A DNA stretch of 60,211 nt, the filler included, from Dugesia japonica (lineage: Eukaryota): NCBI GenBank assembly GCA_001938525.1. It is 5 parts of 5 records of this genome, joined end to end, with 100 filler letters (N's around TTAATTAATTAA, not from the genome) between each part and the next. Parts side by side here need not be neighbours in the genome. Positions count along the whole stretch, not along the records: positions 49,097 to 60,211 come from MQRL01640647.1; 4 more parts are not named here. The stretch is one strand, 5' to 3'. The notes beneath the pieces are model-generated. The model was not told the DNA's origin and made no database searches. It worked only from the letters and a program-made list of their open reading frames with translations. Positions 12,904-57,601 of the stretch are shown here, one piece after another; within the stretch, counting starts at the first letter, position 1, and the number at the start of each line of letters is the position of its first letter. Position numbers and translations under genes: made by a program.

Positions 12904-12974
12904 TGTTGGGGTTCTGGCGTGAGTTGTTCTAAAATTCAAAATCTTGTTCCTAACTCATCACTCCACTGTGGCTC
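12904..12974 (-). mobile_element. LTR-like end (TGTTGGGGTTC...), truncated by a gap
   Basis: The reverse complement ends ctcacgccagaaccccaaca, similar to ctcaggtggaaccccaaca. Confidence 0.45.
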
Positions 12975-13018
12975 NNNNNNNNNNNNNNNNNNNNNNNNNN
13001 NNNNNNNNNNNNNNNNNN

Positions 13019-13030
13019 TTAATTAATTAA
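13019..13030. other. Artificial contig linker TTAATTAATTAA within Ns (also at 26984-26995, 40020-40031 and 49041-49052)
   Basis: The same palindromic 12-mer, with stops in all six frames, is centred in N runs four times. Confidence 0.95.
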
Positions 13031-13074
13031 NNNNNNNNNNNNNNNNNNNNNNNNNNNNNNNNNNNNNNNNNNNN

Positions 13075-26939: not shown

Positions 26940-27039
26940 NNNNNNNNNNNNNNNNNNNNNNNNNNNNNNNNNNNNNNNNNNNNTTAATTAATTAANNNNN
27001 NNNNNNNNNNNNNNNNNNNNNNNNNNNNNNNNNNNNNNN

Positions 27040-28990: not shown

Positions 28991-29009
28991 AATAAAATAA
29001 AATAAAAAT

Positions 29010-30800
29010 ATCGAATCCAATAATAATCCACTTGTATCAGGAATCTGATTTTATACACGCGGATGCATATGAATGTAGTGTAAAGTTCGAAGAAAAAGTA
29101 TCATATTGTGCCAATACACAAATAGTATCACTGATACCAGCTTGTTCTCCGGACATAGTAGTAATATATGCAAGTGATTTTGAGAAAGCATTTAAAACGA
29201 AAACCTTAAAAGTACATGGTAATGAGTTACAAGTAAAGGTTGGTGCAAAAGTAAAGCAAAAAGTAGATATTGTGGGATGGTCCACGGTAAGCGGATACTG
29301 TTAAGGAGGAAATTATAAAATATGGGGACAGGTAAAAGCCGATATCCTAATCAGAAGACAATATCATGCTCAATTAAGGAAAATAAAAGCAAAATTCGAC
29401 GCCGCTACGGAAAAAATGATGAAATATCGATTTTGTAGATTAAAAAATGCAGGTTGTGATACCAGAGAGTCCATGATTACATACAAAGTAAACCCATTTG
29501 AATGAACACTTACAAAATTAAGAACAGTAGAAGTTAGTGGAACTCAACCAACGAATAAGTCACCTAACATCCGAGATAAAAAGATGAAAACAACAGTAAT
29601 AAATGAAAAAGCAACACAAACAGTGAATTTATCAAATTCAACACAAGAAGCGTTAATACTTATTGAAAAAAGAGCAGACGCCAAGTGTGGTGTGACAGTA
29701 AAAGTAACCAATTACAACGGTTTATATTTGTCAACAACGGAAATTAGAGATGCCAGACCAGAAGTAGACAAATTGGATATGAGAATAGCTACTTATTTCA
29801 ACAAAAAAATTGATTATCTATATCATGAAATATTGAGACAAGTAGATAGAATATATCAGGTAACTATCATGAGAAATTGTAAAACCGACTGAGAATTATT
29901 GAGAACAAAAATGGCAATGGTAGTCACAAATCCTGATTTGGTTGCACCACTTTTGTTTGAGGAAAGAGAAACATTTTGGAAAATAGTGGGAGAAACTTTA
30001 GTGAGTTTAAAATGCAAACCAGTAGCAGTTACGCTTATAGATCATGAGAAATGTACTAATGAATTATTAGTAATTTATAAAGGAAAAAAAGGATTCTTGC
30101 TTCCAATAACAAGAATTCTAACAGGTGATTGAAAAATGCAATAACATTCTTGATCCGTATGCATAAATTAACTGAAGAGGTATGGATAACAGTATCGGAT
30201 AGGAAAACAGCACCAACTCCACTAATGAGGGAACTGATAGGGCTCAGTAGAACAACCGAAATGGAATGGATTGATAATATGGAAAAGCGTGGTATTTATA
30301 CAATTAGCGATATTGAGAAAGCAAGAAAACATGCTTTTTCCAATACAAAGAGAAAAAATAATATCAGTAATGGTGGAAAAATTAGTGGAAAGAATTGAAA
30401 ATATGGAAAATTGTGGTATCTATACAATTAATGATATTGAAAAAGCAAGAAAGCATATACTTTTTCCAATACAAAGAAAAAAATTAATATCAGTAATGGT
30501 GTAAAAATTAGTGAAAGGGAGTAATGGAGACGATGTAAATTTTGAATCACTGTTACACGCAGATCATTTTAAAAGGGCAATGCTTAATTTCGTAGATAGA
30601 TTTTTGGGGGAAATGCAATGGTTTGGCAATATATTCTCATGTATTTTATTTGGATGGTATGTATTAACGTTCGTAAAATTAGCGGGTCATCAAATTCTTT
30701 CTTTAAAACAATTATATGCAGTTTTTGGTTACACATGGAAACTAGGAGCATGTTTATATCCATTCATCGCAAAACATATAATTATGCAAAACAATAGTGA
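29010..30800 (+). pseudogene. env: Chuvirus-type (class III, gB-like) envelope glycoprotein, disrupted
   Basis: Motifs in order: LYQE..ECSV..SYC, VGW...GYC*GG.Y, FCRLKNAGCDT, KCG...TNY.GLY, YFNKKIDYL, NC, VGE..SLKCKPVAV...KCTNELLVIY...FLLPITRIL, GIYT..DIEKARKHILFP, then hydrophobic WFGNIFSCILFGWYVLTFV and LYAVFGYTWKLGACLYPF. Confidence 0.82.
30270..30519 (+). repeat. Tandem duplication of about 124 bp inside the glycoprotein
   Basis: IDNMEKRGIYTISDIEKARKH.FPIQREKIISVMVEKLV is repeated as IENMENCGIYTINDIEKARKHILFPIQRKKLISVMV*KLV. Confidence 0.9.
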
Positions 30801-30999
30801 AAAAATAAAAAATCTAGAGAAACATAGAGGCATATATACAGTAAACATAGATGATAAACAAGAATTAACTAAATTAACTAATGACAAATATTGCAAATCA
30901 TTAGACATTGAATATAAGCCATATAAACATGAAAATATCGAACTAAAAGATATAAAGATTAGTGATCAATTGCAATACAAGTATCAAAAAAATTATTCA

Positions 31000-31350
31000 A
31001 TTTCAGTTATAGATTCAGACAATTATCTATTAAAAATAGATATCATAATAAATGAAATCAGTATACCTTCACTAATAGATACAGGAGCAGTATGCTCAAT
31101 AATAAAAGAGTCGTGGTTAAGTAACTCTCTCAAGCAAAAAATAAAAAATTATAAACCAGAGGGTATAAAATCCTTTACAGGTCATTTAATAAAAATAAAA
31201 GGCAAAATTGAATGTACAGTCGCAGTTGGACAAGAAATTAGTACACGTTCTTTTAGAGTTATGGAGAAAGGAACACAGAATTGTATTTTGGGAATGAATT
31301 TTCTTACAAGATTTATGGGTTATGGTATTGATTTACAAAATAATACACTA
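31000..31350 (+). pseudogene. Retropepsin aspartic protease domain
   Basis: SLIDTGAVCSII and CILGMNFL, within ORF 30511-31428. Confidence 0.92.
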
Positions 31351-31939
31351 ACGATGGTGACGCTGTTACCATTACAAATTGAGTATAATGAGGTATTCGT
31401 AACAGAATTAATAACAGTAGAGCGTTGAAGGGAATGTATAATACCAATAAACACAGAATTACAAAGCAAAAATTCATATATTTTTGAACCAAATGATAAA
31501 TTAATGGAAAAACAAAATTTATCAATAATGCCTGAATGTGTAGAACCAAGAAAGGGTACAATACCAATAAGAATAGCAAACTACGACAATTATGGTGTGA
31601 CACTCCAAAAAGATACAAAATTAAGAAAATTATTTGAAAATGGTAATGAATATGAAATATATGAAATTGTAGTTGAGGAACAGGCAAAGAAAATAAATTT
31701 AAAGAGAAAAAATAAACAATTTTTATCTNATTATCCAAAGAGCATAAAATCAGAAAAAAAGGCATGTCAGTTAAATTGTCACGAACTATTCGAACTTATA
31801 GTGGATCAACAGGAAAAAACTGAAAAACTAACTGACACAGAATTAATAAAACCAAAACAAACTATTACGAGAAAACAAAGATTACGAATACAGATCTTAC
31901 GATGAGTTAAAAGCAACAAATACAGAAATTATTAGATAA

Positions 31940-33130
31940 ATATTAAGATGCATTTGCTAAGCATGAATTTGATATGGGAGGAACAAATATTATAAAACAT
32001 ATAATTGATACAGGCGACGCAGAGCCACTAAAGCAACGACCATATGTAGCACATATGTGTTGAGGCCAGAGATAAAAAGACAAGTAGCGAAACAAAATGC
32101 AAATGGAATCATACGGGATAGTTTTTTTTAATGGGCATCACCATTAGTACCAGTTAAAAAGAAAGACAAAGAAATTCGAATGTGTAAAGATTATAGAAAA
32201 CTCAATGAAGTCACGAAAAATGATACTCATCCATTCCCAAAGATACACGAGCAATTTAATAAATTAATGAATGCGCAACATTTTGCAAGTTTAGGTGCCA
32301 ATAAATGTTATAATGTAATTCCAGTGCAGGAAGAAGTTCGAGAGAAAACAGCATTTTGTACCGATGATGGGCTATATGAATTTTTCAGATTATCATTTCG
32401 ATTATGCAATGCACCAGCTACATTTTAAGGATTGATGAACACAGTATTAACATGTGTGGAACATGTAGTTATATATATAGATTATATACTGATAGCATCC
32501 AAATCGTTCGAACAACATTTGGTTAACATAGAAAATGTCTTGTCTAGAATCAGAAAAGCAAATATCAAATTAAAACCAACAAAATGTAAATAAGCAAAGG
32601 AAAGTGTTTTATTCCTCGGACATATTGCATCATTAAAAGGATTAGAACCAAATCCAGAAAAAGTGAAAGCAGTTCAAGATTTCCCAGTGCCAAAAAGCGT
32701 ACAACAGTAACAAGGATTTAATGGCGTAGTGAGATATTACTAGAGGCTTATAGAAAACTTTTGCAAAGATAGCAGCACCATTGGTAGAATTAACAAAAGG
32801 CATGAAAACCAAAGGTGAAAGTAAAAACATTATGATTGTAGAGCTTTTAGATGAAAAATCAAAAAAACCTCAAAAGAAGTGGGGTCCAAAGCAACAAGAA
32901 GCCTTCGATACACTAAAACAACGACTGTTAACAGCTTTAATACTAAGATACCCAGATTTTACCAAACAATTTATAGTGATGACACATGCAAGCGGATATT
33001 CCATGGGAGCATTACTGGGACAAGAATACGAGAAAAATAAATACTGTGTCATCGCATATACGATGAGAATGTTGAAAGGAGCACAGAAGAGATAGTCAAC
33101 GATTGAGAAAGAATGCTTAGATATTATATG
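31940..33130 (+). pseudogene. pol: Gypsy reverse transcriptase and RNase H, disrupted
   Basis: IKHIIDTGDAEPLKQRPY, WASPLVPVKKKD, RMCKDYRKLN, KTAF, LCNAPATF, VIYIDYILI (degenerate YxDD), FLGHI, FAKIAAPL, YPDFTKQFIVMTHASGYSMGALLGQ and STIEKECL. Confidence 0.95.
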
Positions 33131-33732
33131 CCTAAAAAGAAAACTAGTGTTAACCTAGTAGATGAAACAGTTGTCAGAGAAATCTGACCTAGATCATTAG
33201 AAGCTATAATCGATGAAATTGATCAAGGTGGTGTATTAAATGAACCGGCGATGTCAGATACATGCTGTAAAATCTTACAAGTAAACAGAAAATTAAAGCC
33301 TGAAATGAAAATTGAAAACGTTGGACCATGGGAACCCAAGGAAGTTAATGCTGTTGTTAAAATAAATCTCTGAAAAATTATTAAAAAGATTATTTGATGA
33401 AAATACCAGGAACATAATTCATAGCTGCTCAAGCCTTGGCAGTGTCAGCAATAATTATTCAAAATTCATTGTTGAGTGAAACNNNNNNNNNNNNNNNCTT
33501 AAATTAAAATTAGCAAAGCTATCAATGATAATTTATAATGTATTTGAACAATTGACAATGAATTCAACTAAATGTAATGATCAGCAGCAAAGTAGTGAAG
33601 AACCAAGATATGAAATCAATATTGAAAAAAGTGAAATACCATGTTCCGAAGCAACAAACAGAACACTTTAGCCTGCAGAGAGAGTAATAGAGAATCCTAT
33701 TCAAATAATACTAATGATATTGATTATATATA

Positions 33733-34105
33733 TTGATTATATATATGATATTGATTATATTGATTATAATGATATTGATTATATTGTGGAGAACAAATGG
33801 GTTAATTACATATAATTGTCATTATTCTAGCTTTACGGGAATCTACTCACTGGTGGATGCAGTGAGATTAAGTGAAGCATATCCTACAAAATTACAAGTC
33901 CATCGACCAACAAAGTAATATATTTACCAAGAAACAGAGTATTATTGAACTAAAGTTAGAGAATATTGAGTACAGAAAGCAGTGTTTGAATATTATTGTA
34001 GAGTTCATGGTTATACTAATGTTTTATAAGCCAAACTCATACTAATGTGCCACCTGAAGACAGTCAGGACACATTTAGAACAGGAAAGTTAAAGTTCGAG
34101 ATCAA
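33733..34105 (+). pseudogene. N-terminal fragment of a second chuvirus-type glycoprotein
   Basis: Hydrophobic signal-like stretch, then GLITYNC...YSLVD, YIYQETEY...EYYCRVHG and PPEDSQDTFRTGKLKF. Confidence 0.6.
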
Positions 34106-34199
34106 ATAAAGCTATAGTAGAAGATAGTCTTCTGAATAAAATAGACAGAATCTGTAATTAAAATAGAAAATTATCTCACTGGAACAAATGGCGGAAAAT

Positions 34200-34450
34200 T
34201 ATATATTATTAAATATTCATAATGTGATATGAAAATGTGCGATGAAGATATAAAACATGATGTCAAAATCATCCAAAGATACCCAGTCAAATGTATTTTG
34301 TATTTGCTAGTATTTGCTAGTAGACGAAATACAGGAGTAAAAACAAGAGTACCATTGAAACCAATGCCAGTTTCTATATTACCAATAGAAATTCTCGCGA
34401 TGGATGTGTTGGGGTCATTCAAATCAACAAATTATTTATCTCACGAGTGT
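34200..34450 (+). pseudogene. Gypsy integrase N-terminal fragment
   Basis: VPLKPMPVSILPIEILAMDVLG follows a degenerate zinc-binding region. Confidence 0.7.
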
Positions 34451-35444
34451 ATTAGAACCAGATCCAGATTGGGATAATGACATGATTATATAAACGAAGA
34501 AATCAAAAATACTCTAGAGTGAAAACCCAGAAAATACTTCGGACAGAGTTACTTTTTGTGAAGGTCATAGTGAATGAGTTGCTAATGACATAAATACGTA
34601 TAAGAAAGACTACACAATATTCAAACGGGGAAACAAAATTACACAATATGGTGGCAAAAATGTAAAGAAGACATTCCTATTTTTCAAATTAAAATCCAAA
34701 CCACACCACATCCAAACGACAGATCAGGTTTAAAGTGGACTTTTGTCTCAAGTATTTGTGGATCGTTAGATGAGAGTTGCTTACGTTTATTCTTATTGTT
34801 ATGAAGCCAATCAATGCTCAGATCTAGTTGTTAATGTCTCCAAAAGACTAATGGAAAATATTTTCAAAAAAGCAAGTGACAAAGACCCAAACACTTGGCA
34901 AAAGCTTGATTCCAAATTCAAGTTACCAGTAAGATATTATTGTGGACAAGAAGTTGAGCAGTTTGCTCTATTAAAATTTGACATAGATAAAAACCGATTA
35001 TATGTTAGTAAACAGTCCTATATCTTGTACTCAATGGTTTATATCCTCGAGCACATCGGAAAATCACTGTTCACGATTCAAAGATTTATCAATGACAAAA
35101 AAATTGGTCAACAAACTGGTCAGCTAGGTTGAGGTTCCTAAAAAGAAGAAAAACTTTCAGCTTGCAGAAGTGCAGAGTAGAACAAATCCAAAAAGAGAAA
35201 AAGTTCCAGCAATTTCGTGCCTATGATCTTTTTTTCTCAATATCTCGAACCTTAGTATATAGTGGATATGACTTTTTTTAGCAATCCAAAATTTAAATAT
35301 TCTATCTAATACAACTGACTTTATATTTTATTTGTATTGATACTTAATTGATATTTAATACAGTACAAATTATGTATTGGACAATTTGTTATTCTTATTG
35401 TTTTAGTTTTACTTTTAAAAATGTTGATTTTGATAAAATTTTCA

Positions 35445-35493
35445 GGACGAAAATATTTTTTCGGGGGAACATATGTGATGAACCATCACATAT
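35445..35493 (+). mobile_element. Polypurine tract and start of a 3' LTR
   Basis: aggacgaaaatattttttcGGGGGAAcata followed by TGTGATG at 35474, a typical Gypsy PPT-TG junction. Confidence 0.6.
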
Positions 35494-36332
35494 AAAGTTT
35501 TAAATTAAGAATAATTTTTACTAAATTTTAGTTTTTGTTTTAGTTAATAAAGGGTAAGCAATATTTAGAATATAATTACAAAAAATTAGTAATAATAATG
35601 AATTGTTAAAATAATGTTTTCTTTAAAAATTCCTAAAAATTTTTAACATTTAATAAAAAATGATATGTAAAATAAACAAAAAATTATTTAGAAAGAAATT
35701 ATGAATGGAGTTACGTTGGCTCAGAAACTTCCCTATAGATGCTTTTGAAATTTGTTCAAATAAATTATTTTAGTGTTTTTCACGTAATTTTTAAATTTTG
35801 TCAGTACATTTTTAAATTTAGCCAAATTTGTAATATTTAAATATCATTTTTAACTAAAATTTACCGAAAAGCTTACTCNAAAAATTTAAAATATTTTTCC
35901 TTTTTTAATTAAAAGTATGAAAAGTAATTTCCAAACACATTTAATTTAAGTATGGCTTAAACAAAAACAATTTTTAAAATTGAAAGTCCAAAATTGATTT
36001 TCTAATTTTTAAAATGACATGTCAAAAATTAAAAGACAAATAAAAAAAGATAACATTTAGTACTCTTAATATTCATTTGTTAATTCATTTAATTATTGGA
36101 AAAAATTTATTAAACTTTAAATGTGTGTGTTATGATATTTTATGTTTCGCTGGGTTTAGTTTTCTATATACTTTCAATTGTTTTCAAACTTGTCAAACTG
36201 AAAAAGTACCCAGAAAATTAGAAATTATTTTATCATAGGAATTCAATAAAATTTTAAGAAATAATCACTCTTTTAGTTATTTTTATTTACAAATTATTAA
36301 TTTTTATTAGTATTTATATTGAATCTAGCATA

Positions 36333-38347: not shown

Positions 38348-39219
38348 ATGCAAGAACGCATAGAAAAAGATGATAATACTACTAAAATTATTGAACCTCA
38401 AGACGACCAAATAAATTATGCATCTGAATTACATCATGAATATAGAAAAACAAGAAGATTTTTAAAAGTACAAATACATGATAAAGATCATACATGGGGA
38501 TGCGATATTGCGGATATGGTTAAAAAATCTATTGATCGAGATAAATATAGATATATTCTAGTTTGCATTGATTTATATACAAGATATGCTTTTGCATTCC
38601 AATGATAAATAAAATTCAAGAATCTTTAAGAGAAGCTTATGAAAATATATTTGAAGAAATAATAGAATACCAGATTACATCTGGTTTGATAAAGAATCAG
38701 CAATAAAATCAAAATACTTTGATAAATTTCTTAATGAAAATAATATTAAATTATATCACAGAGAATGAAGGTAAATCAGTTTTTGCTGAAAGATTAATAA
38801 AAACTTTGAAAAATAAAATGTTTAAATATTTTACATCAATTGGGAAACAGGAATGGAATAAAGCATTATTAGATAAAATAGTTAATGAATATAATAATTC
38901 AATTCATAGTAGTATTAAGTTATCACCAAAAGAAGCATCAGAAAATCCTGAGAAAATAAAAGATATAATTAGTCAGCATAATCATGCGAATGATAATATA
39001 ATAAATAAACATAGATTTCAAATAGGTGATAGAGTAAGAATATTCAAATATAAAAATAAATTTGAAAAAGGATATTCAACAAAATTTACTAATGAAATTT
39101 TTATAATAACTAAAGTTTATCATACTAAACCAATTACATATGGAAAAACTGATTTAAATAATGAAGATATATTAGGAAGATTTTATGATAACGAATTATT
39201 AAAAACTAATTTTAGGTGA
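38348..39219 (+). pseudogene. Second Polinton/adintovirus rve integrase, without chromodomain, frameshifted
   Basis: ASELHH, TWGCDIADM, YRYILVCIDLYTRYAF, WFDKESAI, KSVFAERLIKTLK, YNNSIHSSIK, FQIGDRVRI, FEKGY and GRFYDNEL. Confidence 0.92.
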
Positions 39220-39975: not shown

Positions 39976-40288
39976 NNNNNNNNNNNNNNNNNNNNNNNNN
40001 NNNNNNNNNNNNNNNNNNNTTAATTAATTAANNNNNNNNNNNNNNNNNNNNNNNNNNNNNNNNNNNNNNNNNNNNATGGTGTTAATAAACCAATAGTAAG
40101 AATAGGGTTATATCAGAAACCAAGTATAAGTACCGTTACAATTTCCATGAAAAATCATCATAAAACAAATTCACTATTCATTTTGTAAATTATTAGTAAA
40201 TATTACAGTGTTTTATTAAAAATATTTTTTACAGATTTGGATTATTATAAAATAGAAAATTGATGAGATATGGATGTATCCAGTGATA

Positions 40289-42579: not shown

Positions 42580-42762
42580 TTGTTAGGTAAATCTTCAATT
42601 GTTAATTCCTTTTGCAAATCACAATTAATATTTTGAGACATCATATATTTTACTTCTACAAACTATAATTCATAAAATAACTAATATTAAATACAAGAAT
42701 TTCAATATTATTATTTAGATAACTCAATTTCAATTAGGTGAAATTAATAATTATCTCCTCAT
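42580..42762 (-). repeat. Dispersed leader plus ORF-start repeat (other copies at about 44670-44860 and 54690-54755)
   Basis: Shared AT-rich leader, followed by MSQNINCDLQKELTIEDLPN here and MSQNITSDLQNELRIEDLPN in the 44670 copy. Confidence 0.75.
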
Positions 42763-42769
42763 TTACCCC

Positions 42770-44665
42770 AGCTTTAAAAACTTCCTACGTTTTTCACATT
42801 TCTATCTAATCGCTGTCCATTTTATCCTTGTACACCATACCATCTTTCATGAATTTTCTCAATTATTCGATAAGACCCTTCAAATCTCTCTTGCCTTTAT
42901 TTTTTGTTTCTATCTTGATGAGTAAAACATCGCCCACTTTGAATTCTCTTTTAGTATACACATCTGGAATGTTAGTAAGTTAGTTAGAATGAATTAATAA
43001 TCACATCTTTAGTTTTTATCTGAAACGTCTGACTCGTACCACTTTTCTCTGCTAATTTTCTTTCCAAAAACGACCTTTGCCGTGCTCTTTTCAGTCGTCT
43101 TCTGTTTTGTTGCGTTAAGTGTAAATTCTATTTAGGGTAAAAGATCTGCCCAATCTGTTGGCTCTCTTTCCTGAAGTGTTGCATTAATCAAATCTCGAAT
43201 TTTCCAGTACTGTCTCTCAATTTGTCCATTTGCATTATGATGATATGGCAATGCAAACTCTCTCATAACTGGATTCAAAAGCTTTTCCACAATCTAATCT
43301 TATCTTTCTTGGACATCCAAATCTCAGTATCCACTTTTCAAAAANAGCTTTTCGTATTGTTTCCTCATTGTCTTGTCTAGACAATGGTATAAAAACCAGA
43401 TATTTACTGTATTGGTCGATTATTCCAAGAATGTAATTTTTTCGTCCACTTGTTTCCCGCATTGGCCCACATATATCTTTGAATATAAACTCTTTATCTT
43501 CTCTTTAGTTGCTGTCGTCACTACTTTGATCTTCTGACAAATTTCACAACTACGAACTATCTTCTGTATTTGNCTCAACAAATTATTTGCAATATATTTG
43601 TTTCTTATATATTCGTACACCTTTTTAACTATTGCATGGCATTGTACACATACCTTACATCTTGGTCTAGATAACATATCTGCATTACCATGTTGAATTC
43701 CTTTTCTAAATTTTAAAACCTTATCTAAATTGCTCAGATAATTAATCCATGTTTGGAATTACGACGTAATTGGTTTCTTCGTCGTTATTATGAAGGTTAT
43801 AGCTTTTTGATCTGTTCTAAGAGTAAATCTTCTAACGTACAACTAATGTTTGAAATGCATACAGAAATAATACACAGCCAATAACTCTTTTTTTGTAATG
43901 CAGTATCCCTTTTCATGACTTGTCATTGAGTGTGGTCCATAGGCAACAACTCTTTCTTTTCCTTTCTCTGTGACAATTCTGCTCCAATTACATCGAAACT
44001 GGCATCTGTATCTAATATAAATTCTTTGTTTATGTCCGGAAAACACAATATTAGTGCAGTCATTATACCCTCGAAAGTATTGTTTATTTCATCTGTTCAT
44101 TCTAATTTCTTGTTGCTTGGTCCGCTACACAACTGCTCGAATATCTTTGATTTTCTTGCGTAGTTTTCTATAAATTTCCTGTAAAAATTACAAATTCCCA
44201 AGAAACTTTAAAATTTCTTCACACAGTTAGGTTTGCTAAATGTTCTTATAGTTTCTATTTTAGATGAATCAGTTCTAACACTATCTCTACTAATTATGTG
44301 TCCAAGAAACTTGATTTCACTTTGAAGGAACTCACACCTCTCTGGAATAATTCTTAGACCAGATTTCATTATTTCCATCAATACTTTTTCAATTACTTCA
44401 TAGTGTTGGTCTTTATTGTTCGTAAATATCAGTATGTCATCAAGATAAACCATGGCTCCATTGATTCTGCCCACCACTTTTGTCATCATCTCTTGAAATG
44501 TCCCTGGTGCCGCTGCGATGGCAAATGGAATTCTATTAAAACAATGTCCGTGTTTCGTTGAAAACGCCGTTTTTTCTTGAGATTCTTCTTCCAGGTCTAC
44601 TTGATAGTATGCATTTCCCAAATCTATTGAACCAAAATATTTTGTTCCATTCCACCGCTGCCCCC
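42770..44665 (-). pseudogene. pol: Gypsy pol remnant (RT-RH-IN)
   Basis: FGSIDLGNAYYQ, KTAF, APGTFQ, MVYLDDILIF, FLGHII, YCITKKELLAV, SCEICQ, GIIDQYSKY and RLDCGKAF. Confidence 0.93.
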
Positions 44666-47600
44666 ATATTAGGTAAATCTTCAATTCGTAATTCGTTTTG
44701 TAAATCACTAGTAATATTTTGAGACATCATTTATTTTACTACTACAAAATATGTTTCATAATATAAATAATATCGGAATACAAGCATTTCAATATTAATA
44801 TTTATATAACTCAATTTCTATTGGGTGAAATTATTAATTAATAATTCTTTCCTCATAATCTACTGATGATACTTTTTAATGTAAATATAATGATGATTTA
44901 TTAACAATTCTATACACTCAAACCTGTTTTTGTGCGATTTGTTTTGTGCGGTATATGAATATATGAAATTTCCATCTCCCTCACAAAAATAATTGCACAA
45001 AAACAGGTTTGAGTGTATTGCAATTTAGTTATTATTTCTGGTTGATATGAACCAGTACAGGTAGTGATTAAAAGTCTTATTTAATCAATTAACGTATGTG
45101 ATGCAATGTACTCTTCTTGTAAAAATAGATTAAAATTCTGGCCTTGTGCATTTTTAATGTATTTCTTTCTACAATATTGTGCAAATTGACATTAATACTT
45201 ATGATATCTGGGCCCCATTGGTATGAGTTGTAATCTTTCTTGATGATAATTCAGTCTGCTTGGATTAATAATAATGTTTATATGTAAATCCATTTTGACT
45301 TCACTTGAATCTGAAAAAATAACGATTCGAAATTGCAAGTGTCTACAACGCTATACATCCATGTTGTTTGTAGAACCCGGTCATATTTAACCGAGCCAAT
45401 CAAGAAATGCACATTTCATTGTAAGTGTTTGCAGCACAATATACTAATAACAGCTAATTTTACTAACCACTAACACAAAGAAAAATTGTTGTTCACTTGT
45501 TGAATATTAATCATTTCTAACTGTTCACATTGGTATGTATATTGAGTACCGATAATAGGAAAATTCTCGTGATTATCTGTGAAAAAGTTTTATCAAGGTA
45601 CTTAATATGATAAACTTTCTTATAGGTTTCACAGTTGAATAGCCTAATTGTTAGACGGTGACAAAAATAGAGACATTTTAATGGTGTCGTTTCATAGTTT
45701 TTATTATTCTTTCATAGATATTTGTTTCTGCTAGCAAATAATATACACAAAAATTACAGAAACTTCGACGTATTCTTGTGACTTTTGACAATTATTTCNN
45801 NNNNNNNNNNNNNNNNNNNNNNNNNNNNNNNNNNNNNNNNNNNNNNNNNNNNNNNNNNNNNNNNNNNNNNNNNNNNNNNNNNNNNNNNNNNNNNNNNNNN
45901 NNNNNNNNNNNNNNNNNNNNAAATACTAAACTGATTTTGTCAGCCTTACGATTATTCACTACGATTAAATTTCTTATCGTTCGATCTAATTTTACTAATA
46001 AACTATTAACATCTTAATTTTCTTCTGCATTCACAAGAATTATTCTTTCTTTTACAAACGTAATTTTATCCGTTCAAATAGTTATTTATTCGTCTGGAAT
46101 GGTTAAATTTCTTACATGCTAATCTTTGACTAGTCTCAACTGGAAAATATTTGAGATTCTTTGTTAATTACCACTGAAAACGAGATCTTTTCAATTTGAT
46201 TTTATTGACTGAAAATTCGATATTTTACCTCTTGAATATTTATGAAACAAGCTAACCATATATACACAATAAATTCGTCTACATTTTCTTTGTATTCTGT
46301 TTTGGTGAATTATTATTTTTCATTTTATATTTTAATACATTTATAATATGAAATTTATATTTTAAAATTAACGTGCAAATGGTAACGAGAAATCGAAAAT
46401 ATAAATATCAATTTCAATGTCAATATTACTTTAAATTACATAAATTGTTTTATCATTAAGATTCGCTGGTAAATTTGTAATTACAAACAAATAACGGTGA
46501 TCATTTACTGTTTGAATAAGTTCAGAAAAATAAGAAAAATTGTAAAATTTCAATTTTATTAAAGTTGCTAAATTTTGTTGTAGTAAAGTTTGAGAACCTT
46601 GGTTTAAACAAATAGTCACAATTAGAATTTCGCATGTAGAAATTTTTCAGTGACTTCGCTTACTTCACAGACGGTAAGTATCATTGGAATAATGCAAGAT
46701 AACGAATATAATAATAACATGTGCATATTTTCAGAATTTCCTAATTGGCCCAAAATCCACCATTCAGATTATAGATTACGTCATACACAATTATTAAAAG
46801 AAAAATATAATATTTTGGTTAAAATATTTATTTTTGATAGTATGGATATTTTCGATCTGCAACAAAGTATGTCTCATACCTGCAGACATTTTCAATCCAA
46901 TCCGTATTAATCACACATTTCTTTCAATGAAAACAAATCTTGAAAATTATATATTATCTAAATGTTCGGTAGAACACTTGAAAAATTATAACGGATAGGA
47001 AACAAAAAGAAGATAGTGACACATGAGTAGGAAGTTGTATAAAAAAAGGTTAAAACAATCCAAATAGAATCAAACAAGGGCGAATGTAAAATCAAGGTTG
47101 AAGTATCATAACAGTAATACGAGACTAACAAAATAACAAGCATAAAGTTTCAGAATAAAGTACTCTTGAAGGAAGCAAAGAAGAAATGAAACGAGGATGG
47201 ATCAAAGTGCAAAAGGACAGTACGAAATTCTTATGAATTGACAATAATTAACGACGAAAAGAAATAAAATAAATTAATGGAGATTAAAAACTGGAAAATT
47301 ATTCAATTCCAAATTATTTGGGTAAAGATGAAATAATTTCAAACAATTAGTAAATTCAATAGAATATCAACAATTTATATAAATTTGTGCTTCCTTCCAA
47401 CAGGAAACAACTAGAGATTGAAATCACGTTATTCGATCGATAATCGAGAAATGTTTCGATAAATCATCCTATTTAAACTTATTAGAAATTACCATAAACT
47501 CTGGATCGCTATGAATATTATTCTTGTCGCGCGAAAACACACACACACACGATTTTACATATCGTGAGGGAAAGAGATAACTTGTTACGGCTAATATTAT

Positions 47601-48996: not shown

Positions 48997-50375
48997 NNNN
49001 NNNNNNNNNNNNNNNNNNNNNNNNNNNNNNNNNNNNNNNNTTAATTAATTAANNNNNNNNNNNNNNNNNNNNNNNNNNNNNNNNNNNNNNNNNNNNATTG
49101 ATACGAATTTTCATTTATGGGATCAAACTGCCATTAAGGGAAACGATTTTATCATAAATAAATAAATACATTTGTGTTCTTTAAATTGACTCGTGTTGAG
49201 TGATTCCGTACAGAGGGTACTCTTAATTGATTGCCTGTTCTTAGGTGTCTACTGAGGAATCTTTACTTTGACATACCCTCTCGTCTATCACTATTACTAA
49301 CATACAGTTTTAAATCATGAGGAAAGATCGCAATATTTTATTTCCATTGACCAAGTTAGGTTGGTAATTATGTATTAATATTGTTACTACTCGTGGCAAG
49401 TTCAATAAGTGCCTGATAGGTTTTGTTATTTCTTTTTGTTTTGGTTTTTAGATTTCGGGCTAATGACAGTTATACTCATTACTACCCATTGTATGTTCAA
49501 TAGTAGTTAATCTTTTTGGTAGGTAGATGAAATAGTAGACGAATTGAGGGCCGCGTTAAAGCTAATACGAAAACAGCGTCAGATCTCACGACGGAGGCAA
49601 TTAGTTGCCTATTTTTATTCAATGGAAGACTAGAACATCCTGACGAAACAGATCTCGCCTGCTTTGCAGAGATGTTTCCATTACCCGTGGGGTAGCAGTC
49701 TTTTGAGCTTCCGAATCGATAAAATAATCACTGTTCATGATATATGGAAATAAACTATGTTTTATTAATTGTTTTAGTTTAATATTTAACTCTTTTATGA
49801 TGGTTCTCTTCATTGTCACATTAAGAATAGACTTTAAATGGGAAGTGATATGTGACAGATACTCGGGAAAGACATACTTTAAAAGGTATAGAAATCCTCA
49901 TGACCGCGCTGCGGGAGTGTGTTTTAATTATTCTAACCTTCCACCCGTAGAANCTGAAGATTTACGTCAGTGTCACGCGTATAAGCGGCGGGCTTATTAT
50001 GAGTGGAGAGGCCCTGACCGAAATAGTGAGGTGTATCATAAGCGTATATATACTACAGCTGATGGTTGCAACCCCAGTGAACTGATAGAGGGGTCCGCTA
50101 TGATTAGTGTTCCCCCTGAAGCGGCTCCTGCTTTCTCCAGTTTAACTGTTAATCTGCAAGGCGACCTATTAATTAATATAATACTTATAACAATTGGTTA
50201 TTTCAATTCGTCTCACTAATTCGGTTTCAAATAAATAAAATGGGTTACCTTTAGGCATTGAGTAAACTTTCAGGAAAAGATAATTTTTCTTTGTCGCTCA
50301 AAGGTTCCTTGTCCACTTGGTTTATTTTGAGTTATTTTATTTTGGTTATATTATGTTAAAGATAAGGTACTTTAG

Positions 50376-50717
50376 TGCATTCGTCATTAAACGGATCTTC
50401 GGACCCCAATAAACAGATGAGAGACTCCAGTGAGGATACTGAAATGTCCTAGGAGTTATATCGACTGGCAAAACGCCGTTTCAAAGGCGAGATAGCCACG
50501 GCGACCGCAAATGTGAAGCGTTATAGGAATGGAAGCTGTGCACGAACAAGAACGAGTATAAAAGACGCAGGTGGAATCATTCGCCAAAATTATCTGGTCG
50601 AACCATGACCGTGAAAATAAACTGGTCAACGATATTTTGCGCCNNNAAGAAAAATCCTATCTCGAACCCCTCATGATTGATAAGAGCACCCAAACTAAAT
50701 CCGTATCACGTGACTAA
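50376..50717 (+). pseudogene. Accessory exon A, copy 1: basic/coiled-coil protein ending in DKSTQT
   Basis: Starts after tttAG. Reads EMS*ELYRLAKRRFKGEIATATANVKRYR...HDRENKLVND...LEPLMIDKSTQTK. Homologous to 56559-56914. Confidence 0.7.
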
Positions 50718-50852
50718 GCATTTCTATACTTGTAAATACATGATTAATTAGTGTAATCGTTTCCTCAGTGTGAATAACCTTGATTTAATTAAAGAATTTT
50801 GTTGTGAATAATCATGTTATTTCTCTCCTTTCATTAATGCTTAATTATCTAG

Positions 50853-51235
50853 TGCCACGAATTACCTTGCCAAACAACTTACGACGGTGTCACCGGATAA
50901 TGCACCGCTTGCTCCTTGAAAGGCAACTAAAACGTAATACAGATCGGGCTCTATTAAAACACCTGACCCAGAGGGACCAGATGATAAAGAAACTAGATCT
51001 AATTATAAAAAAACAAGCTAATTTGGCTACGCAAACTAAAGCTTTGGAAGACGAAACGAAGCTATTATTATAACGGAAGATTGACTTTCTAAAGCAGTAT
51101 ATTGCGGATCTTTCCCGTCAGGTAGGTAATCCCACTTGGTTGCAATGGAATGACGATGATGATATAGCCGCCTTCAACTTCCTAACGACGGATCCGGCCC
51201 AGTGGCTAGACCCTGGTGCATTGGATCTCCTGTAG
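50853..51235 (+). pseudogene. Accessory exon B, copy 1: coiled-coil protein with acidic WLDPGAxDL tail
   Basis: PRITLPNNLRRCH...MIKKLDLIIKK...KIDFLKQYIADL...DDDDIAAFNF...WLDPGALDLL*, with AATAAA just downstream. Confidence 0.7.
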
Positions 51236-51309
51236 TTATCATGTAAAATAAAACTTTTCATTGTTCAAACATTTATGGTATTCACTAAATTCAAGATAAT
51301 AAGTGAAAT

Positions 51310-51485
51310 ATTTGGACCCGAATTAAAGGTTTAGGGGTGTGCACTTCTCATCAAGTAAGAGGTCAACCGCTCTGCACTGAAGGCCTAACTTAGGAGCGTT
51401 AGGTTAAATTCTTGAAAGGGTTCCCTGAGGGCTGTTTTTTCCCCAGCCACGTTTTTCTTCACCTAACTCAGGTGGAACCCCAACA
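51310..51485 (+). mobile_element. LTR-like 3' end
   Basis: aaattcttgaaagggttccctgagggctgt...ctcaggtggaaccccaaca, shared with 57519-57601. Confidence 0.75.
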
Positions 51486-51632
51486 TAAATTTGAAATCAA
51501 ACAATTCAAATATCATTCTCACACAAAATATTGGACTTTTATTTAACTTTTTATAAACTTCTTTATGTCAATTTTAAAAATTATCGGAATATGCATATAC
51601 GATCGGTAAAAATAATAAAAATTAAATAAAAA

Positions 51633-51826
51633 TGTTGGGGTTCCACCTGAGTTGGAAAATATTGTGACTGGGGAAAAACAGTCCTCAGGGGAACCCGTTC
51701 AAGANNNNNNNNNNNNNNNNNNNNNNNNNNNNNNNNNNNNNNNNNNNNNNNNNNTTACATGTTTATTTCTTTTTATTATGTCTTTCCTTGCTTTATTTTC
51801 TGCTTTAGGGGTGTTCCACCCCAACA
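51633..51826 (-). mobile_element. Solo-LTR-like element whose interior lies in an N gap
   Basis: Begins TGTTGGGG and ends CCCCAACA, flanked by AAAA on both sides (possible 4-bp TSD). 51633-51704 is an inverted copy of the end at 51410-51485. Confidence 0.65.
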
Positions 51827-52260
51827 AAAATATACATAGATGAAAATTTCCAATCAAGAAACATAATTATAAAATGAAAGTCTGCAATTAAAATATGATA
51901 TTCAAAATCTGAAAAAATAAAATGNNNNNNNNNNNNNNNNNATATTGATTTGATCTCGATCGTTTGATTGTTGAATATTGTTGGTCAGATTGAGCATTCG
52001 TATTGCTTGGATATTTGACTGCTTGTGAGTGTATTTTTTTTTTAAAAAAACTATTTTAAAATTTCTTTTCTACAAATTAACTTTACCATTGATCTGTATA
52101 TTAAACAAATATTTTGAAAAACAAATTTTCTTAAAATTTATTTTCAAATGCAAATATCAAAATGATGTTCTTCTATTTTCATAGACAATTCAATATTTTG
52201 GCTACGCCTTCTTCAGGAACTATTGCAATAAAATTTGTACTCACACCTCATATAAATTTT

Positions 52261-52906
52261 GGTTCTTTTCCGTTATCAGGCCNCAAATTTTTTCCATTGT
52301 TTTAAGAATTGTTAACTCAAAGAGTTTTTGGTTTTAATATTATTTTTGAAAAACGCATACTAACAATGAAAACCAAAATTAAATTGAAGACCAAAGCGCT
52401 GCAATATCTTTTAAAATCGCGATTATTCAAAAGAGTTTTCCACATGTATTCCGCCAAATATGAATCCATAAGAGTTTCACTTTGCTTCTTATTTGGAAAT
52501 TGGACGCTTCTCAACCTTCGTTCAACTGTTTGTGTTTGAGCACCAGTAGTAATTACACAACTCACGCATGTAATTGCTCCAATCCACTATCACATTATGA
52601 CTACCCATGTCTAATTTGAGTTCACAGAAATCCTCAGAAATGACATTTTATGAGCCAAACAGTAGATGAAATAAGCAGCAATTTACAAAGATAATTCCTA
52701 ACCAATTAGAAACCCAAAGAATTTTATAACTGCGACATGCGGTTTTATCACACCAACGAATTTTTATCCCAAATTGTAGCTTCATCTGATGATTATTCCT
52801 TCCTGTAAGATATGGTGGTATTTTTGTATGCTTAAAAGTGGTTAAAAAAGTAAATTTAATTAATTAAAAATGCTTAAAACTTTGCAGCCAGATAACGAAA
52901 AGTACC
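52261..52906 (-). mobile_element. Internally deleted Merlin (ISXO2/IS1016-like) DNA transposon
   Basis: TIRs GGTTCTTTTCCGTTATCAGG and (reverse complement) GGTACTTTTCGTTATCTGG. Remnants VIVDWSNYMRELC and TGAQTQTVER...DSYLAEYMWK are juxtaposed. Confidence 0.8.
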
Positions 52907-55885
52907 AAAATATTCTAATTATTTTTCCTTATTTAGATAGTGATGACGGTCGCCATTGTTCTAAAATGGTTTTCAGTCNATAGAGGATAAAATTTGTAAA
53001 TTTCTTATGCGATTTGAGCAATATTCTCGTCAACTTAAGCCACATTACATATGGATAATTCTAGCTAATAATGTTAGTACTTGTTGGATTTGTTCTTTGC
53101 GTGTCCAAAAGTCGTGAATTTTATGACCACTCTTGTAATTCTTCTTGTAAGAGTATTTTGAATTTTCCTACTAAACATTTCAAATGTATTTTGTGAGCAT
53201 TTTATTGTTTTTGATAGTAATTTCTTTAAAATTTGTTTAACTTATTCAATATTGATTAATTTTGGCTCAAACAATATCAATAATTGTGTTTCGTTAATAC
53301 CTTTTAAAATAATTGATCTCGCCAAATTCAAGACTTTAAAACGATCTTTGGCTACTTAGCCTTCATTTTCATAAAAATATTAATGTTGATAAATCTCAAA
53401 TTAAAAGTCGAAATATAGAATTATTATAAAAATCAAAAAAAAAATTCCGAACGAATTTTTTATTTTAAATAAATTCTGAAAAACTATCAAAACGAATAAT
53501 TATTCTCGCAATCGTAAAATCTGAGATTATCAATAATAGTGATGCCTTTGNGTTATGATTATAATATACTGATTGAAACAGTGATAATATCTGAAGTGGA
53601 TTGTTTTTCGACTGATTTGAAATCAGTTTTATTCATAGGATTTAATCAAAATTTTTGCGTAACTGTTCAAAGATTCGAAATATTTTCTTTTTTTAAAATG
53701 TTTTCCTCGAAATACTTTAAATCTTAAGATTCAATTCTTACGAAATTCCTCTAATTTTTTAGATGCATCACAGATAATCAATTTGATAAATATCAAGTAT
53801 TGGGCAAAAGAATCCTCAAAATTTTACTTATTAACAAGTTTAAAAATAATAATCCAGTCTCCATGAAAGAAAAACCATTTAATAACTTCTTAACTAAGAC
53901 TATGAACAACAATATTTTTGGGAATGCCACGAAAGTGCATAATAATCCTGATTTTATATAGGATAATGGCAACAATTTATCTAAAACACAACTCAAAACA
54001 CTATTTTACATCTAAAATTCAGTCCTGAATATTTTGATAATTATACTACTGATTATTCTAAAAAGAACAAATAGTTAATTGAGAACCAGTTTTTTAAAAT
54101 TTTAAACAATTGAATAATAATGGCGTTCCCTATATTATTCAAACAAGCAATCATTTTAAAAATGAATACAACGCATTTATTAAAGGAAAAAATAAATTTA
54201 AATCTAATATGATTTATAATAAAATGAATTAAAAAAATTCTGTAAACAATTTGAATTCTACTTTTAAGTCTTATCTTACAAAAAAATACTTGGAATTTCA
54301 AAACTACCAGTTTTAAAATTCAATAGTAATTTAAATTTGAAAATTAATTCCAGTTTTGAAATTAAATATAAATCTGAAATAGCCTTTTATTAAAAAAAAT
54401 AATAAAATGAACAAGGATAGTTGTTAGGTAATTTTAAAATTTAATGCAATAATGTTTTTATTAAAATCAATGTTTATTAGTTTAAATTTTTAAATGTAAA
54501 TTTGAAATTTAATTGTANNNNNNNNNNNNNNNNNNNNNNNNNNNNNNNNNNNNNNNNNNNNNNNNNNNNNNNNNNNNNNNNNNNNNNNNNNNNNNNNNNN
54601 NNNNNNNNNNNNNNNNNNNNNNNNNNNNNNNNNNNNNNNNNNNNNNNNNNNNNNNNNNNNNNNNNNNNNNNNNNNNNNNNNNNNNNNNNATAATATTTAG
54701 TTATCTCAATTCTTATTGGCTGAAATTATTAATTAATAATTATTTCCTCATAGTAAATATTTAGTAAAAAGTTTAAAAGCCTCAACTGATTGGGATCATT
54801 TTAGCCCAGCACTCATTTTGTATCCGGATGAGACGGATTTCTCTTTTTCGCAGAATTATTCCCGCTTCGAACTAACGTGGACTTAGATCAGACAAACTGA
54901 ATTTTCAACTGTTTTCGATAAATAAAATCATTAATTAAGTTCATGTTTTCCTGTTTTATATACAAATTATTCAGCAATTACCAATTCCTAAATTTTTACC
55001 TAAGTTTATATTTCAGTGGACATCATATAGTTACAGACATGGAATCAACAAACCCAACGTATTATTTTCTGACGTCGAATCAACCCGAATAACCGAGACG
55101 CTAGGATCTCGGTGAATCAACTTAACCTGCCGGCCGTGGAAGCTGTCACAGCGCGGGTTCAATATTTAGCGTAGCGGCATCGCTACCAGACGTGGCGAGC
55201 ACCATCTTCGGGTCTAGCCACTCGTTTCTCCTACCGCAATAATCCAATTCCACCTGTAGCGAGAAATAGTGTTGAGATCGAATAACACANNNNNNNNNNN
55301 NNNNNNNNNNNNNNNNNNNNNNNNNACACAGCAACATCACATAGCATCACATACACAAATAAACCTTCAACAATCACAGCCTTAAAATAACAATCTATTG
55401 TCATTCAATGCAGATCCAATCAATCCTCAATTAGTTCAATTATCAAATTCAACTCAATATTCGGAAAGCAGTTCAATTATTGGATATTTAAATCGATATT
55501 GTTTATAATAGACTTCATGATTTATAAAAATGATCGATATTAAAATCTTGATGTAATTTGTGAATTTATTTCATTTTATTTTATAATCAATATTCATTAT
55601 TATGTACAGTTAGTCTAATAGTTTTTATTTTTTGAAAAAAACAAAATTATTTTAAGGTCATAAAAATTTCTGTATATATATATTTGACCTTATTTCATTT
55701 TTGGGAAAACAAATAATTTTTGCATATATTTGACTTTTAAAATTTTTTTTGTAATTAATGTGACATTTAAATCAAACAGAAAAATTTTTGTTTTTAGTAA
55801 AAAATGATTGATTTTTTATTAATAAATGTTGATGTTTGTATGCAAAATATTGAGGTTGTATGCATGTATGTAGTGCTCAATTCAG

Positions 55886-55920
55886 TATAAATACTGATTG
55901 AATTTGATAGATTTTCAGTC
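55886..55920 (+). promoter_or_regulatory. TATA box plus initiator
   Basis: TATAAATA at 55886 and TCAGTC at 55915 with canonical spacing of about 30 nt, upstream of the accessory exons. Confidence 0.5.
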
Positions 55921-56558
55921 GTTTTATTTACAGAGACACTGACCTCTCAGGGAAGCTGTAATCTGGTAAATTAAAATTAGCTGATAAGGTTTTATTGATA
56001 GACGAATATTTTGTTATACATAAAAAATAAAGGGTGTTTTAGAAGTGTGTATTTATTTATTTATATAACAACATACACGATATAACCCTATTTATATCTT
56101 TGATTAAAATATTTATTATATAATATTGTACCTACATATACACAGGGATACAATCAACACTCATAAAATCACGAACCAAATATTTATTCACTAATTTCAA
56201 ATACGAACCATAATATCTTTTGTTGAGTTGAAATACCCAACAATAGTATCAATAATCTCTTACGGAACATCCGAGACCCGACAAATTCGGAGAATAGGGA
56301 AAACATTGACTTTGTTCCCACTCCTGTAATTCCTAGTGATGTTAAAAATATGGAATCCCAGTCAACTAGTTAAATTTAGTTATATTAATCTGTCTATTTT
56401 TATTTGTTTTATATCCCATAAATAAATATTGTTTGACTAGAGGTGAGAGTTGGTTCATTGATGTTTTTTAAATTAGTTTCAGTTTATCAAAGTTTATCTT
56501 TTCTGCATTATCATTACATCCATTCTGAAACAAATTAATTGATAATAACAAATTCTAG

Positions 56559-56914
56559 TGCATTTATTGATCAACCGTTCCGTGGCCCCCACGAAAAAGG
56601 TCCGAGAAAACAGTAAAGACCTAGAGATGTCCTGGGATCTCAATAAATTGGCTAAACGGAAATGGGAGGCCAAAACAGCCACTGCAAGCGCTAAGGTGAA
56701 GCGTTACCAAAAGAAATGTCATAGCTACCGATTAGAAGCAGAGGCCTCCCATGCTCAGGAGCGTATTTGAAAACGTCAGGTAGAACCCTTCGCAAATATT
56801 ATCTAGTCCCTCCATGACNGTGAGAATAAACTGGTGACTGATTTGTTGGAAATGCGAAAGCATGTTCCTTTAGAGGCTTTGATGGTGGATAAATCCACGC
56901 AAACCCGAAATTGA
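56559..56914 (+). pseudogene. Accessory exon A, copy 2
   Basis: Starts after ttctAG. Reads EMSWDLNKLAKRKWEAKTATASAKVKRYQ...ENKLVTDL...LEALMVDKSTQTRN*. Confidence 0.7.
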
Positions 56915-57008
56915 TTATTTAAATATTTTGATGTAAACAAACCTTTCTGTAATTAATTCAATATTTTGATAGTTTTTTTAGATAAATTTATCATATCTTT
57001 ATTTTTAG

Positions 57009-57373
57009 GGCCCAGAATCCAACTACCGACTAACCTAAGACAATGTCATTGCTTCANCCAAAATCCTTTACTTGAACGCCACCTTAAGCGTCAAACAGAA
57101 CGACAGTTATTGCGCAACTTAACACAACGCAATCATATGATAAAGAAACTGGGTATTATCATCAAAAAACATCGAGAGTTAGACGCACACATCCAGAGAA
57201 TCCTCAACAACAAAATAGCATTCTTAAAACGCTACATTGCCGACCTGACAACCCATTTGGAAATTGAGAACTGATCGCCCTGGCATAGTGAGGATGACGA
57301 GGCAGCTTTTGATTATCAGGAGGATGAACCCTCCAAATGGCTCGATCCAGGGGCTTTTGATTTAACTGAATAA
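57009..57373 (+). pseudogene. Accessory exon B, copy 2
   Basis: PRIQLPTNLRQCH...MIKKLGIIIKK...KIAFLKRYIADL...EDDEAAFDY...WLDPGAFDLTE*. Confidence 0.7.
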
Positions 57374-57424
57374 ATGTTTTTCCTATTTAAATTTGTCATT
57401 TTTTCTATTATGAGTTAAGGGGAA

Positions 57425-57601
57425 TGAGGAACCCGAATCAAAACAATAGAGTGCGTACTCCAAATACATGATGGGAGCCAACCACTCTAAATCAAAAACC
57501 TAAATAGAGACTTTAAGTAAATTCTTGACAGGGTCCTCTGAGGGCTGTCTTTTCCCCCATTCATGATTTTTTCTACACTTAGCTCAGGTGGAACCCCAAA
57601 A
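57425..57601 (+). mobile_element. LTR-like 3' end, copy 2
   Basis: aaattcttgacagggtcctctgagggctgt...ctcaggtggaaccccaaaa. Confidence 0.7.

Follow-up and report, generated by a model that had tools for sequence, protein, structure and literature searches.

Decayed copies of a probable spliced accessory-gene array, tentatively placed inside a long terminal repeat, in Dugesia japonica

Introduction

Can a retroelement carry spliced protein genes within its own long terminal repeat (LTR)? The question is raised by a 60,211-nt stretch of DNA from the planarian Dugesia japonica (assembly GCA_001938525.1), called the window below, which consists of five contigs joined by N linkers at positions 12975–13074, 26940–27039, 39976–40075 and 48997–49096 and is AT-rich (GC content 0.23–0.36). 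On the last contig (49097–60211) a preliminary description had recognised two diverged copies of a cassette, in which two exons, A and B, are each led by a splice acceptor and followed by an AATAAA signal and a conserved end, and had proposed that LTRs of several kilobases contain an alternatively spliced accessory transcription unit. The analysis reported here makes it probable that the cassette is a spliced array of accessory genes, a conclusion common to the two leading views of its location, inside a long LTR or just before a short one. The first of these is the explanation that we favour, but it is held tentatively.

Results

Two collinear copies of the cassette

The two copies proposed earlier, at 50376–51485 and 56559–57601, are borne out by an alignment that covers A, B and the terminal block. 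The cassette extends further upstream than had been described, with an exon C and probably an exon D in both copies, and the order (D)–C–AATAAA–A–B–AATAAA–terminus is collinear in the two. The parts are:

49527–49695, plus strand: exon-like block D of copy 1; phase-1 AG at 49525–26; frameshifted; PDETD motif.
49831–50219, plus strand: exon C of copy 1; phase-1 acceptor; 129 codons and a stop; AATAAA at 50230.
50376–50717, plus strand: exon A of copy 1; phase-1 acceptor; two stops and a 26-nt frameshifting deletion; ends IDKSTQT.
50853–51235, plus strand: exon B of copy 1; phase-1 acceptor; one internal stop; basic long helix and acidic tail, ends WLDPGALDLL.
51236–51485, plus strand: tail of copy 1; AATAAA at 51247; purine-rich junction at 51300–51308; 177-bp block at 51309–51485 with a possible terminal stem; ends CCCCAACA.
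54753–54886, plus strand: 3′ part of block D of copy 2; left side cut by another high-copy repeat at 54691–54752.
55017–55269, plus strand: 5′ part of exon C of copy 2; phase-1 acceptor, then three stops within the exon; broken off by the insertion Z.
56247–56373, plus strand: probable 3′ part of exon C of copy 2; reading frame open as far as the stop at 56371–73; AATAAA at 56421.
56559–56914, plus strand: exon A of copy 2; phase-1 acceptor; two internal stops; ends VDKSTQT.
57009–57373, plus strand: exon B of copy 2; phase-1 acceptor; one internal stop; ends WLDPGAFDLTE.
57374–57601, plus strand: tail of copy 2; AATAAA at 57369, overlapping the stop of B; polypurine tract (PPT)-like AAGGGGAA-TG at 57417–57426; 177-bp block at 57425–57601; ends CCCCAAAA.

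The exon starts are led by AG, as had been noted. The distance from the last AATAAA to the end, given before as about 230–250 bp, is 239 bp in copy 1 and 233 bp in copy 2, and that from the first AATAAA to the acceptor of A is 146 and 138 bp, respectively. Protein similarity had been said to persist where the spacers have diverged, and this is what the alignment gives. Identity between the copies is 49% in protein B and 49% and 60% in two parts of A, and the terminal block scores z = 25.5 (0 of 300 shuffles). The spacers stand at the level of shuffled sequence, with z = −0.3 between A and B; the observed score is reached by 184 of 300 shuffles for A–B, 220 for C–A and 192 for D–C.

Exon C of copy 1 corresponds to two pieces in copy 2, lying on either side of Z, and the coding parts total 130 codons in copy 1 and 127 in copy 2. 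The open reading frame (ORF) C of copy 1 matches 55043–55207 (tblastn, 33%, E=6e-5). Between the piece to the right of Z and the C-terminal end of C in copy 1, no similarity is detectable (equalled by 926 of 1000 shuffles); the piece is assigned to C because of its frame, length and position. Upstream of C, an exon-like block D with a shared PDETD motif is probably present in both copies, judging from the sequences; its homology is weak (4 of 1000 protein shuffles; DNA z = 1.5), and in copy 1 its GC content is 0.44 vs 0.26 in the following spacer.

Upstream of D in copy 1, the stretch 49170–49320 (plus strand) is GC-richer, is preceded by an AATAAA and has two TGA codons in an otherwise open frame; it is a possible fifth exon. 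LTRs of another type, starting with TGTGAG or TATGAG, are found at 51486–51523 and 54691–54752 (minus strand), with related starts at 42709–42770 and 44796–44857. One such start adjoins copy 1 and another cuts copy 2; other copies of this LTR type run on into a purine tract (loose ends).

Coding constraint, decay and splicing

Over 218 aligned codons of A and B, the proportions of nonsynonymous and synonymous differences (pN and pS) are 0.30 and 0.87, and identity by codon position is 0.65/0.75/0.34. A dN/dS ratio near 1 had been named as evidence against the protein genes; pN/pS is 0.34 (bootstrap 0.28–0.41), a value from two copies with pS saturated. The codons were aligned via the protein, which favours a low pN/pS. 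The count of stops in the other frames stands apart from this: three stops lie in frame in each copy, vs 5–19 per copy in the five other frames. This comparison of the two sequences indicates that A and B are under purifying selection. Both copies are nevertheless broken, with private stops in each, several of them opposite Trp in the partner, and a frameshift in A of copy 1. The stop at 50450–52 in A of copy 1 is absent from most other copies (6,878 of 6,896 depth units differ at 50451), where depth is summed over contigs and is to be read here and below as an order of magnitude and not as a copy number.

All six acceptors of C, A and B are in phase 1, as is that of D in copy 1; the chance of such agreement is 1 in 9 for three exon types and 1 in 27 for four. 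Exon B is conserved from its AG on: ahead of the first Met that the copies have in common, 25 of 42 residues are identical, with a codon-position pattern of 23/34/11. Neither B nor C has a start codon common to both copies. No GT[AG]A donor near the exon ends is common to both copies. From the phase-1 acceptors, the conservation of B ahead of the shared Met and the lack of a shared donor, D, C, A and B are best read as alternative terminal exons that would need an upstream leader. The splicing from an upstream exon that had been proposed thus gains indirect support, through the common phase and through the 42 codons of B that are conserved from the AG without a shared Met.

RNA reads from three runs, of which 25%, 25% and 6% were read, gave 695, 117 and 86 placed reads, almost all of them partial. 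In run X11, a small number of reads of the family over the core of A and the tail lie mostly on one strand (22 vs 6 at 50602; 14 vs 0 at 51395). An index of sequencing runs listed none with the sequence in RNA, which has no bearing on expression.

A solo LTR nested in copy 2

The insertion that splits exon C of copy 2 is an element of a different kind:

55270–56242, plus strand: nested solo LTR Z of another family; TGTTG...CAACA; target-site duplication (TSD) ATAG at 55266–69 and 56243–46; TATA at 55886; AATAAA at 56026; not part of the cassette.

The start of Z is the only exact match of a TSD plus inverted repeat in 4073 nt (0.019 expected). At its borders, a single-copy DNA contig ends at 55289 and RNA reads break off at 56242 (a loose end), and the summed DNA depth is 114,131 at 56214. 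Z reads as the solo LTR of another, very high-copy family. Nesting of Z accounts for the wider separation of C from A in copy 2. The TATA-initiator (TATA-Inr) at 55886, previously cited as lying upstream of the exons, has to be withdrawn as a promoter of the cassette: it belongs to Z, and copy 1 is without such a TATA. A TGTTAGG at 54422 was rejected as the start of Z, as an exact TSD and repeat are found only at 55270 and the single-copy contig ends at 55289. The RNA reads over Z at 56214 mostly show the strand pattern opposite to that of the cassette (26 vs 4 in X11).

Proteins of the array

Homologue searches were word-based and length-limited, with the exception of one search for B. No homologue was found for A, B or C, and the Pfam and PHROGs matches were sub-threshold only, in line with the earlier failure to recognise a family for A or B. 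The pattern of the A core had no match in viral and prokaryote contigs. Six metagenome 19-mer matches were considered as relatives; all six are without similarity beyond the pattern and are therefore put down to chance. The single Rfam match (E=0.91) lies outside the cassette.

Protein A ends in IDKSTQT in copy 1 and VDKSTQT in copy 2, that is, in the LC8/DYNLL-type motif [IV]DKSTQT. DKSTQT has been kept with different codons (five of six differ, with Ser AGC vs TCC), and the six frames of the window hold only one other [KR]xTQT. Compared with the LC8 consensus [DS]-K-x-[TVI]-Q-[TV]-[DE], both copies agree from position −4 to +1, with Val or Ile at −5, while +2 is K or R, not D/E. The natural LC8 consensus is given as DKSTQTD, and Ac-VDKSTQTD has a dissociation constant of 0.07 uM (PMC3078936). 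The prediction is that [IV]DKSTQT lets protein A bind LC8/DYNLL, a hub protein of the host, and that this would serve dimerisation or transport linked to dynein.

The N-terminal half of B is basic and its tail acidic. An AlphaFold model built from 2 sequences consists of one long helix, residues 7–90, and a low-confidence tail (predicted template-modelling score 0.37), and no viral fold matched it. The prediction for B is a basic coiled-coil protein whose tail is acidic. As to the other two, the DETD of D may resemble a caspase-3 site, and the N-terminus of C (49830–49890, 55019–55080) looks WW-domain-like by eye; Pfam gave no such match for C.

The terminus and its relatives

A conserved end had been reported for both copies. 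Copy 1 ends in CCCCAACA as described; copy 2 ends in CCCCAAAA, with one mismatch. Three further elements bear on this end:

51633–51826, minus strand: third family member; same end at 51633–51704, 82% identical to copy 1; begins with TGTTGGGGTGGAACACCCC at the opposite end; gap of 50 N; AAAA flanks.
9327–10678, plus strand: distant relative on another contig; A-rich block; TATA-Inr at 9862; ~640 bp that show no homology to A or B; terminal block, which is homologous and ends CCCCAGCA.
11042–11587, minus strand: element started by TGTTGGGGT; first ~550 bp colinear, on modest support, with the A-rich block that precedes the TATA at 9862.

The element at 51633–51826 runs, as had been seen, from TGTTGGGG to CCCCAACA, and has AAAA on both flanks. 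It contains a 50-N gap with 72 nt on either side, and its 194 bp are the assembled length, from which the real length may differ. Its ends share a 9-bp inverted repeat, TGTTGGGGT / ACCCCAACA; the AAAA flanks are low-complexity, are read across the N gap and come from one element only. Of the two related ends noted before, both on another contig, that at 10678 shows homology, with z = 7.0 and 5.3 and none of 500 local shuffles as high, whereas that at 12904 is weaker (z = 4.3, mostly from the last 11 bp). The 11587 element and the A-rich block align with a score of 113, against 94 for the highest of 144 background windows; among local shuffles the figure is 2 of 200.

In three of four ends a stem can form from the last ~65 nt (z = −3.7 in the minus-strand element, −2.2 at 10678, −1.6 in copy 1 and +0.7 in copy 2). 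Three of 12 pairs change on both sides across the four sequences, too few to count as shown. No primer-binding site (PBS) follows any of five such ends. A TGTTGGGG at 34407 was discarded as a terminus, as it sits in integrase-like coding sequence (by eye).

Discussion

Inside a long LTR

The explanation that we tentatively favour, rating it somewhat short of probable, is that the two copies are decayed remains of an array of small coding segments, the accessory genes of a high-copy Ty3/gypsy-type element, spliced singly to a shared leader and located inside an LTR of more than 2.4 kb. A promoter upstream of the sequence seen would give rise to a leader ending in a phase-1 donor. This donor would be joined to the acceptor of D, C, A or B, each serving as a terminal coding exon, and the RNA would end at one of two AATAAA signals, that following C or that following B. 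U5 would correspond to the last ~180 bp and would include the terminal stem and the integrase attachment end. The array would be copied as part of the LTR, and solo LTRs would carry it.

Neither an LTR start nor a PPT had been seen between the exons and the end. With respect to the start this stands: on the plus strand from exon D to the end, no TGTTGGGGT with at most one mismatch is found in either copy (2.4 kb in copy 1; the cassette parts in copy 2), and allowing two mismatches yields three unconvincing sites. With respect to the PPT it stands in part, for no run of at least 11 purines occurs, but copy 2 has the PPT-like AAGGGGAA-TG. Further observations support a long LTR. At its start the 51826 element bears no relation to the tail of copy 1 or copy 2 (z = −0.5 and 0.5), although its other end is 82% identical to copy 1. 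The relative at 10678 has the same terminal block with no PPT, a TATA-Inr 816 bp upstream and the A-rich block that is colinear with the TGTTGGGGT-started element at 11587. The last 177 bp are without AATAAA. Summed DNA depth, in orders of magnitude, is 105,019 at the terminus, 57,943 (55%) in the core of A, 981 in B, 146–472 in C and 78–365 in the spacers, with single copy at ~12. LTRs of such length have a precedent in the Burro elements, with at most 25 kb of internal sequence and more than 30 kb in total (PMC6431247), figures that imply multi-kb LTRs.

Several points weigh against a long LTR that carries spliced genes. Among the 15 of 71 joints listed, every one from a DNA contig, there is no RNA joint, at the low coverage of three partly read runs, and exon B of copy 1 has zero RNA depth. 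The window shows neither a 5′ end nor a promoter for either copy. The homology between the 10678 relative and the 11587 element is modest and AT-rich, and it does not continue past the TATA (z = 1.1); the start at 51826 was also compared with a decayed start at ~9250, which was rejected as a match (z = −0.1). The LC8 motif of A is without D/E at +2, and a TQT anchor is no guarantee, as many TQT peptides fail to bind LC8 (PMC6607443). The remaining adverse points concern the length of the repeat. In copy 2 the conserved terminal block, 177 bp long, opens at the PPT-like run, for which 0.012 occurrences are expected per 60 nt. The aligned position in copy 1 likewise stands 177 bp before the end, and the single pyrimidine in the run there is missing from most copies (at 51304, 359 of 365 depth units are different). 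The minus-strand element is just 194 bp as assembled. A depth ratio of 0.55 between the core of A and the terminus is also expected for one internal gene per two short LTRs.

These last points lend substance to a second explanation, which we regard as quite possible, if not probable. The same spliced array may lie in the internal 3′ region, just before a PPT and a short LTR of ~177 bp; subgenomic RNAs would be made from a 5′ donor of the element, like env and the 3′ accessory genes of complex retroviruses, and solo LTRs would be gene-free. In its favour, a PPT-like run is followed by TG at 57417–57426, and non-coding homology between the copies begins at this run (block z = 6.7; preceding 60 nt z = 0.2), as homology with the 10678 relative begins ~170 bp from the end. 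Two blocks of equal length and a minus-strand element with a 4-bp flank match suit a short repeat, as does the loss of the 55886 TATA, cited for a long LTR, to another element. The block itself, however, starts with TGAGG in copy 2 and TATTT in copy 1, not with TGTTGGGG, and contains neither AATAAA nor TATAAA. The start of the minus-strand element is unlike the first 70 bp of the block, the 10678 relative is without a PPT there, and no gag or pol sequence was recognised beside either copy.

The long LTR can be taken one step further: multi-kb LTRs may act as self-contained gene cassettes, with one promoter and leader and at least four same-phase terminal exons, including an LC8 binder and a coiled-coil/acidic-tail protein, and thousands of solo LTRs, with no need of gag or pol, would disperse expressible genes whose proteins act on pathways of the host. 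This extension is considered doubtful.

Alternatively, the terminus could be the end of a DNA transposon with very short terminal inverted repeats (TIRs; TGTTGGGGT) and a 4-bp TSD, with the exons as passengers and 51633–51826 as a derivative similar to a miniature inverted-repeat transposable element. The ~200-bp unit does have both ends and a flank match. Ginger1 and Ginger2 transposons have TGT...ACA termini (TGTNR), a 4-bp TSD and introns in some members, in their transposase genes (PMC2836005). Their TIRs, though, are 40–270 bp in Ginger1 and 50–180 bp in Ginger2, and their targets are specific, CCGG/CCGT or RTATAY (PMC2836005); here the inverted repeat is 9 bp, and the flank, from one element, is AAAA. 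A, B, C and D show no similarity to a transposase or integrase, but the window does not include the element's 5′ part. In addition, Z displays TGTTG...CAACA with a 4-bp TSD as an LTR-type signature in this genome. The ends are accordingly of LTR type rather than Ginger type, as first proposed, and a DNA transposon is improbable.

Still less can be said for an antisense unit, in which the LTR would be read on the minus strand, with the CTCAGGTGGAACCCCAACA end as its U3 start, and the array would be transcribed antisense within U3. Five such ends have neither a PBS after them nor a PPT before them, so the flanks do not fix the orientation, and the terminal stem folds on both strands. The TATA-Inr of the 10678 relative, by contrast, points toward the end, and the X11 reads over the core of A and the tail are mostly exon-sense, if the library is stranded as usual; we consider this explanation quite unlikely. 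Least likely of all is a host gene cluster or segmental duplication that lies beside a repeat end by chance, which would suit acceptor-led exons under coding constraint but not the thousands of single-copy depth equivalents of the A core, the broken state of both copies and the spacing to the TG...CA terminus that is fixed in both.

Relation to known systems

The nearest likeness is to Burro/GYPSM1, the giant Ty3/gypsy elements of planarians, which have multi-kb LTRs, thousands of copies and accessory ORFs; the cargo described for them lies in the polyprotein or an upstream ORF, and the review that describes them mentions no spliced terminal exon array (PMC6431247). The parts available of PMC8532177, PMC11410931, PMC13238120, PMC13309565 and PMC13465017 do not describe the content of Burro LTRs. 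In the layout of Burro, a mononegavirus-type fusion domain stands directly before the protease (PMC6431247). On another contig of the window, 27248–35500 (plus strand) is a decayed Burro-like gypsy element with a CCHC-like knuckle and a Monjiviricetes fusion domain (Pfam PF24664) directly before an aspartyl protease, a layout that by itself suggests a genome of planarian type. It continues with reverse transcriptase- and integrase-like pieces, a purine run and a TGTGATG at ~35474, the probable 3′ LTR start, and is much shorter than described Burro elements. This LTR start, TGTGATG after a purine run, seems different from that of the cassette family.

Accessory genes that reach into U3 are familiar from vertebrate retroviruses, as with nef of human immunodeficiency virus and sag of mouse mammary tumour virus. 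In foamy viruses, bet is spliced onto bel2, whose 3′ end reaches U3 (PMC6950176), and small 3′ ORFs thus lie at or in the terminal repeat. The complex retroviruses differ in that one ORF overlaps U3 in a vertebrate virus; here an invertebrate element has three to four same-phase terminal exons and two AATAAA signals, and no sequence similarity was found. Literature searches, which covered listings and the openings of abstracts, turned up no account of several accessory exons arrayed within or next to the LTR of an invertebrate element; the search did not extend to the primary Burro papers or Repbase, where these sequences may already be described.

Under either location, an invertebrate gypsy-type element with three to four alternatively spliced accessory genes of no recognised family would approach the complex retroviruses in organisation. 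If the array lies inside the LTR, solo LTRs would be units that code for proteins and are dispersed through retrotransposition, whereas they are usually seen as remnants without coding function that provide promoters. An anti-apoptotic domain encoded by Burro1 is already in use in planarian stem cells (cited in PMC13465017), so further element-borne proteins would matter there. LTR elements are de-repressed in smedwi-2(RNAi) planarians (PMC8532177).

Other features of the window

The remaining contigs and the interval between the two copies hold sequences of other origin. Between the copies, an ORF lies at 52317–52586 (minus strand); by eye, it resembles a Merlin/ISXO2-like transposase, with no supporting Pfam match. 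Pieces that look by eye like Polinton/Maverick elements (integrase, DNA polymerase B-like, capsid-like) are found at 1022–1528 (minus strand), 5235–7959 (plus strand), 25774–26304 (plus strand) and 38380–39219 (plus strand). A satellite of ~7.5 kb with 35-bp units occupies 13075–20530, and a second gypsy pol fragment lies at 42900–44726 on the minus strand (RVT_1, E=9e-23).

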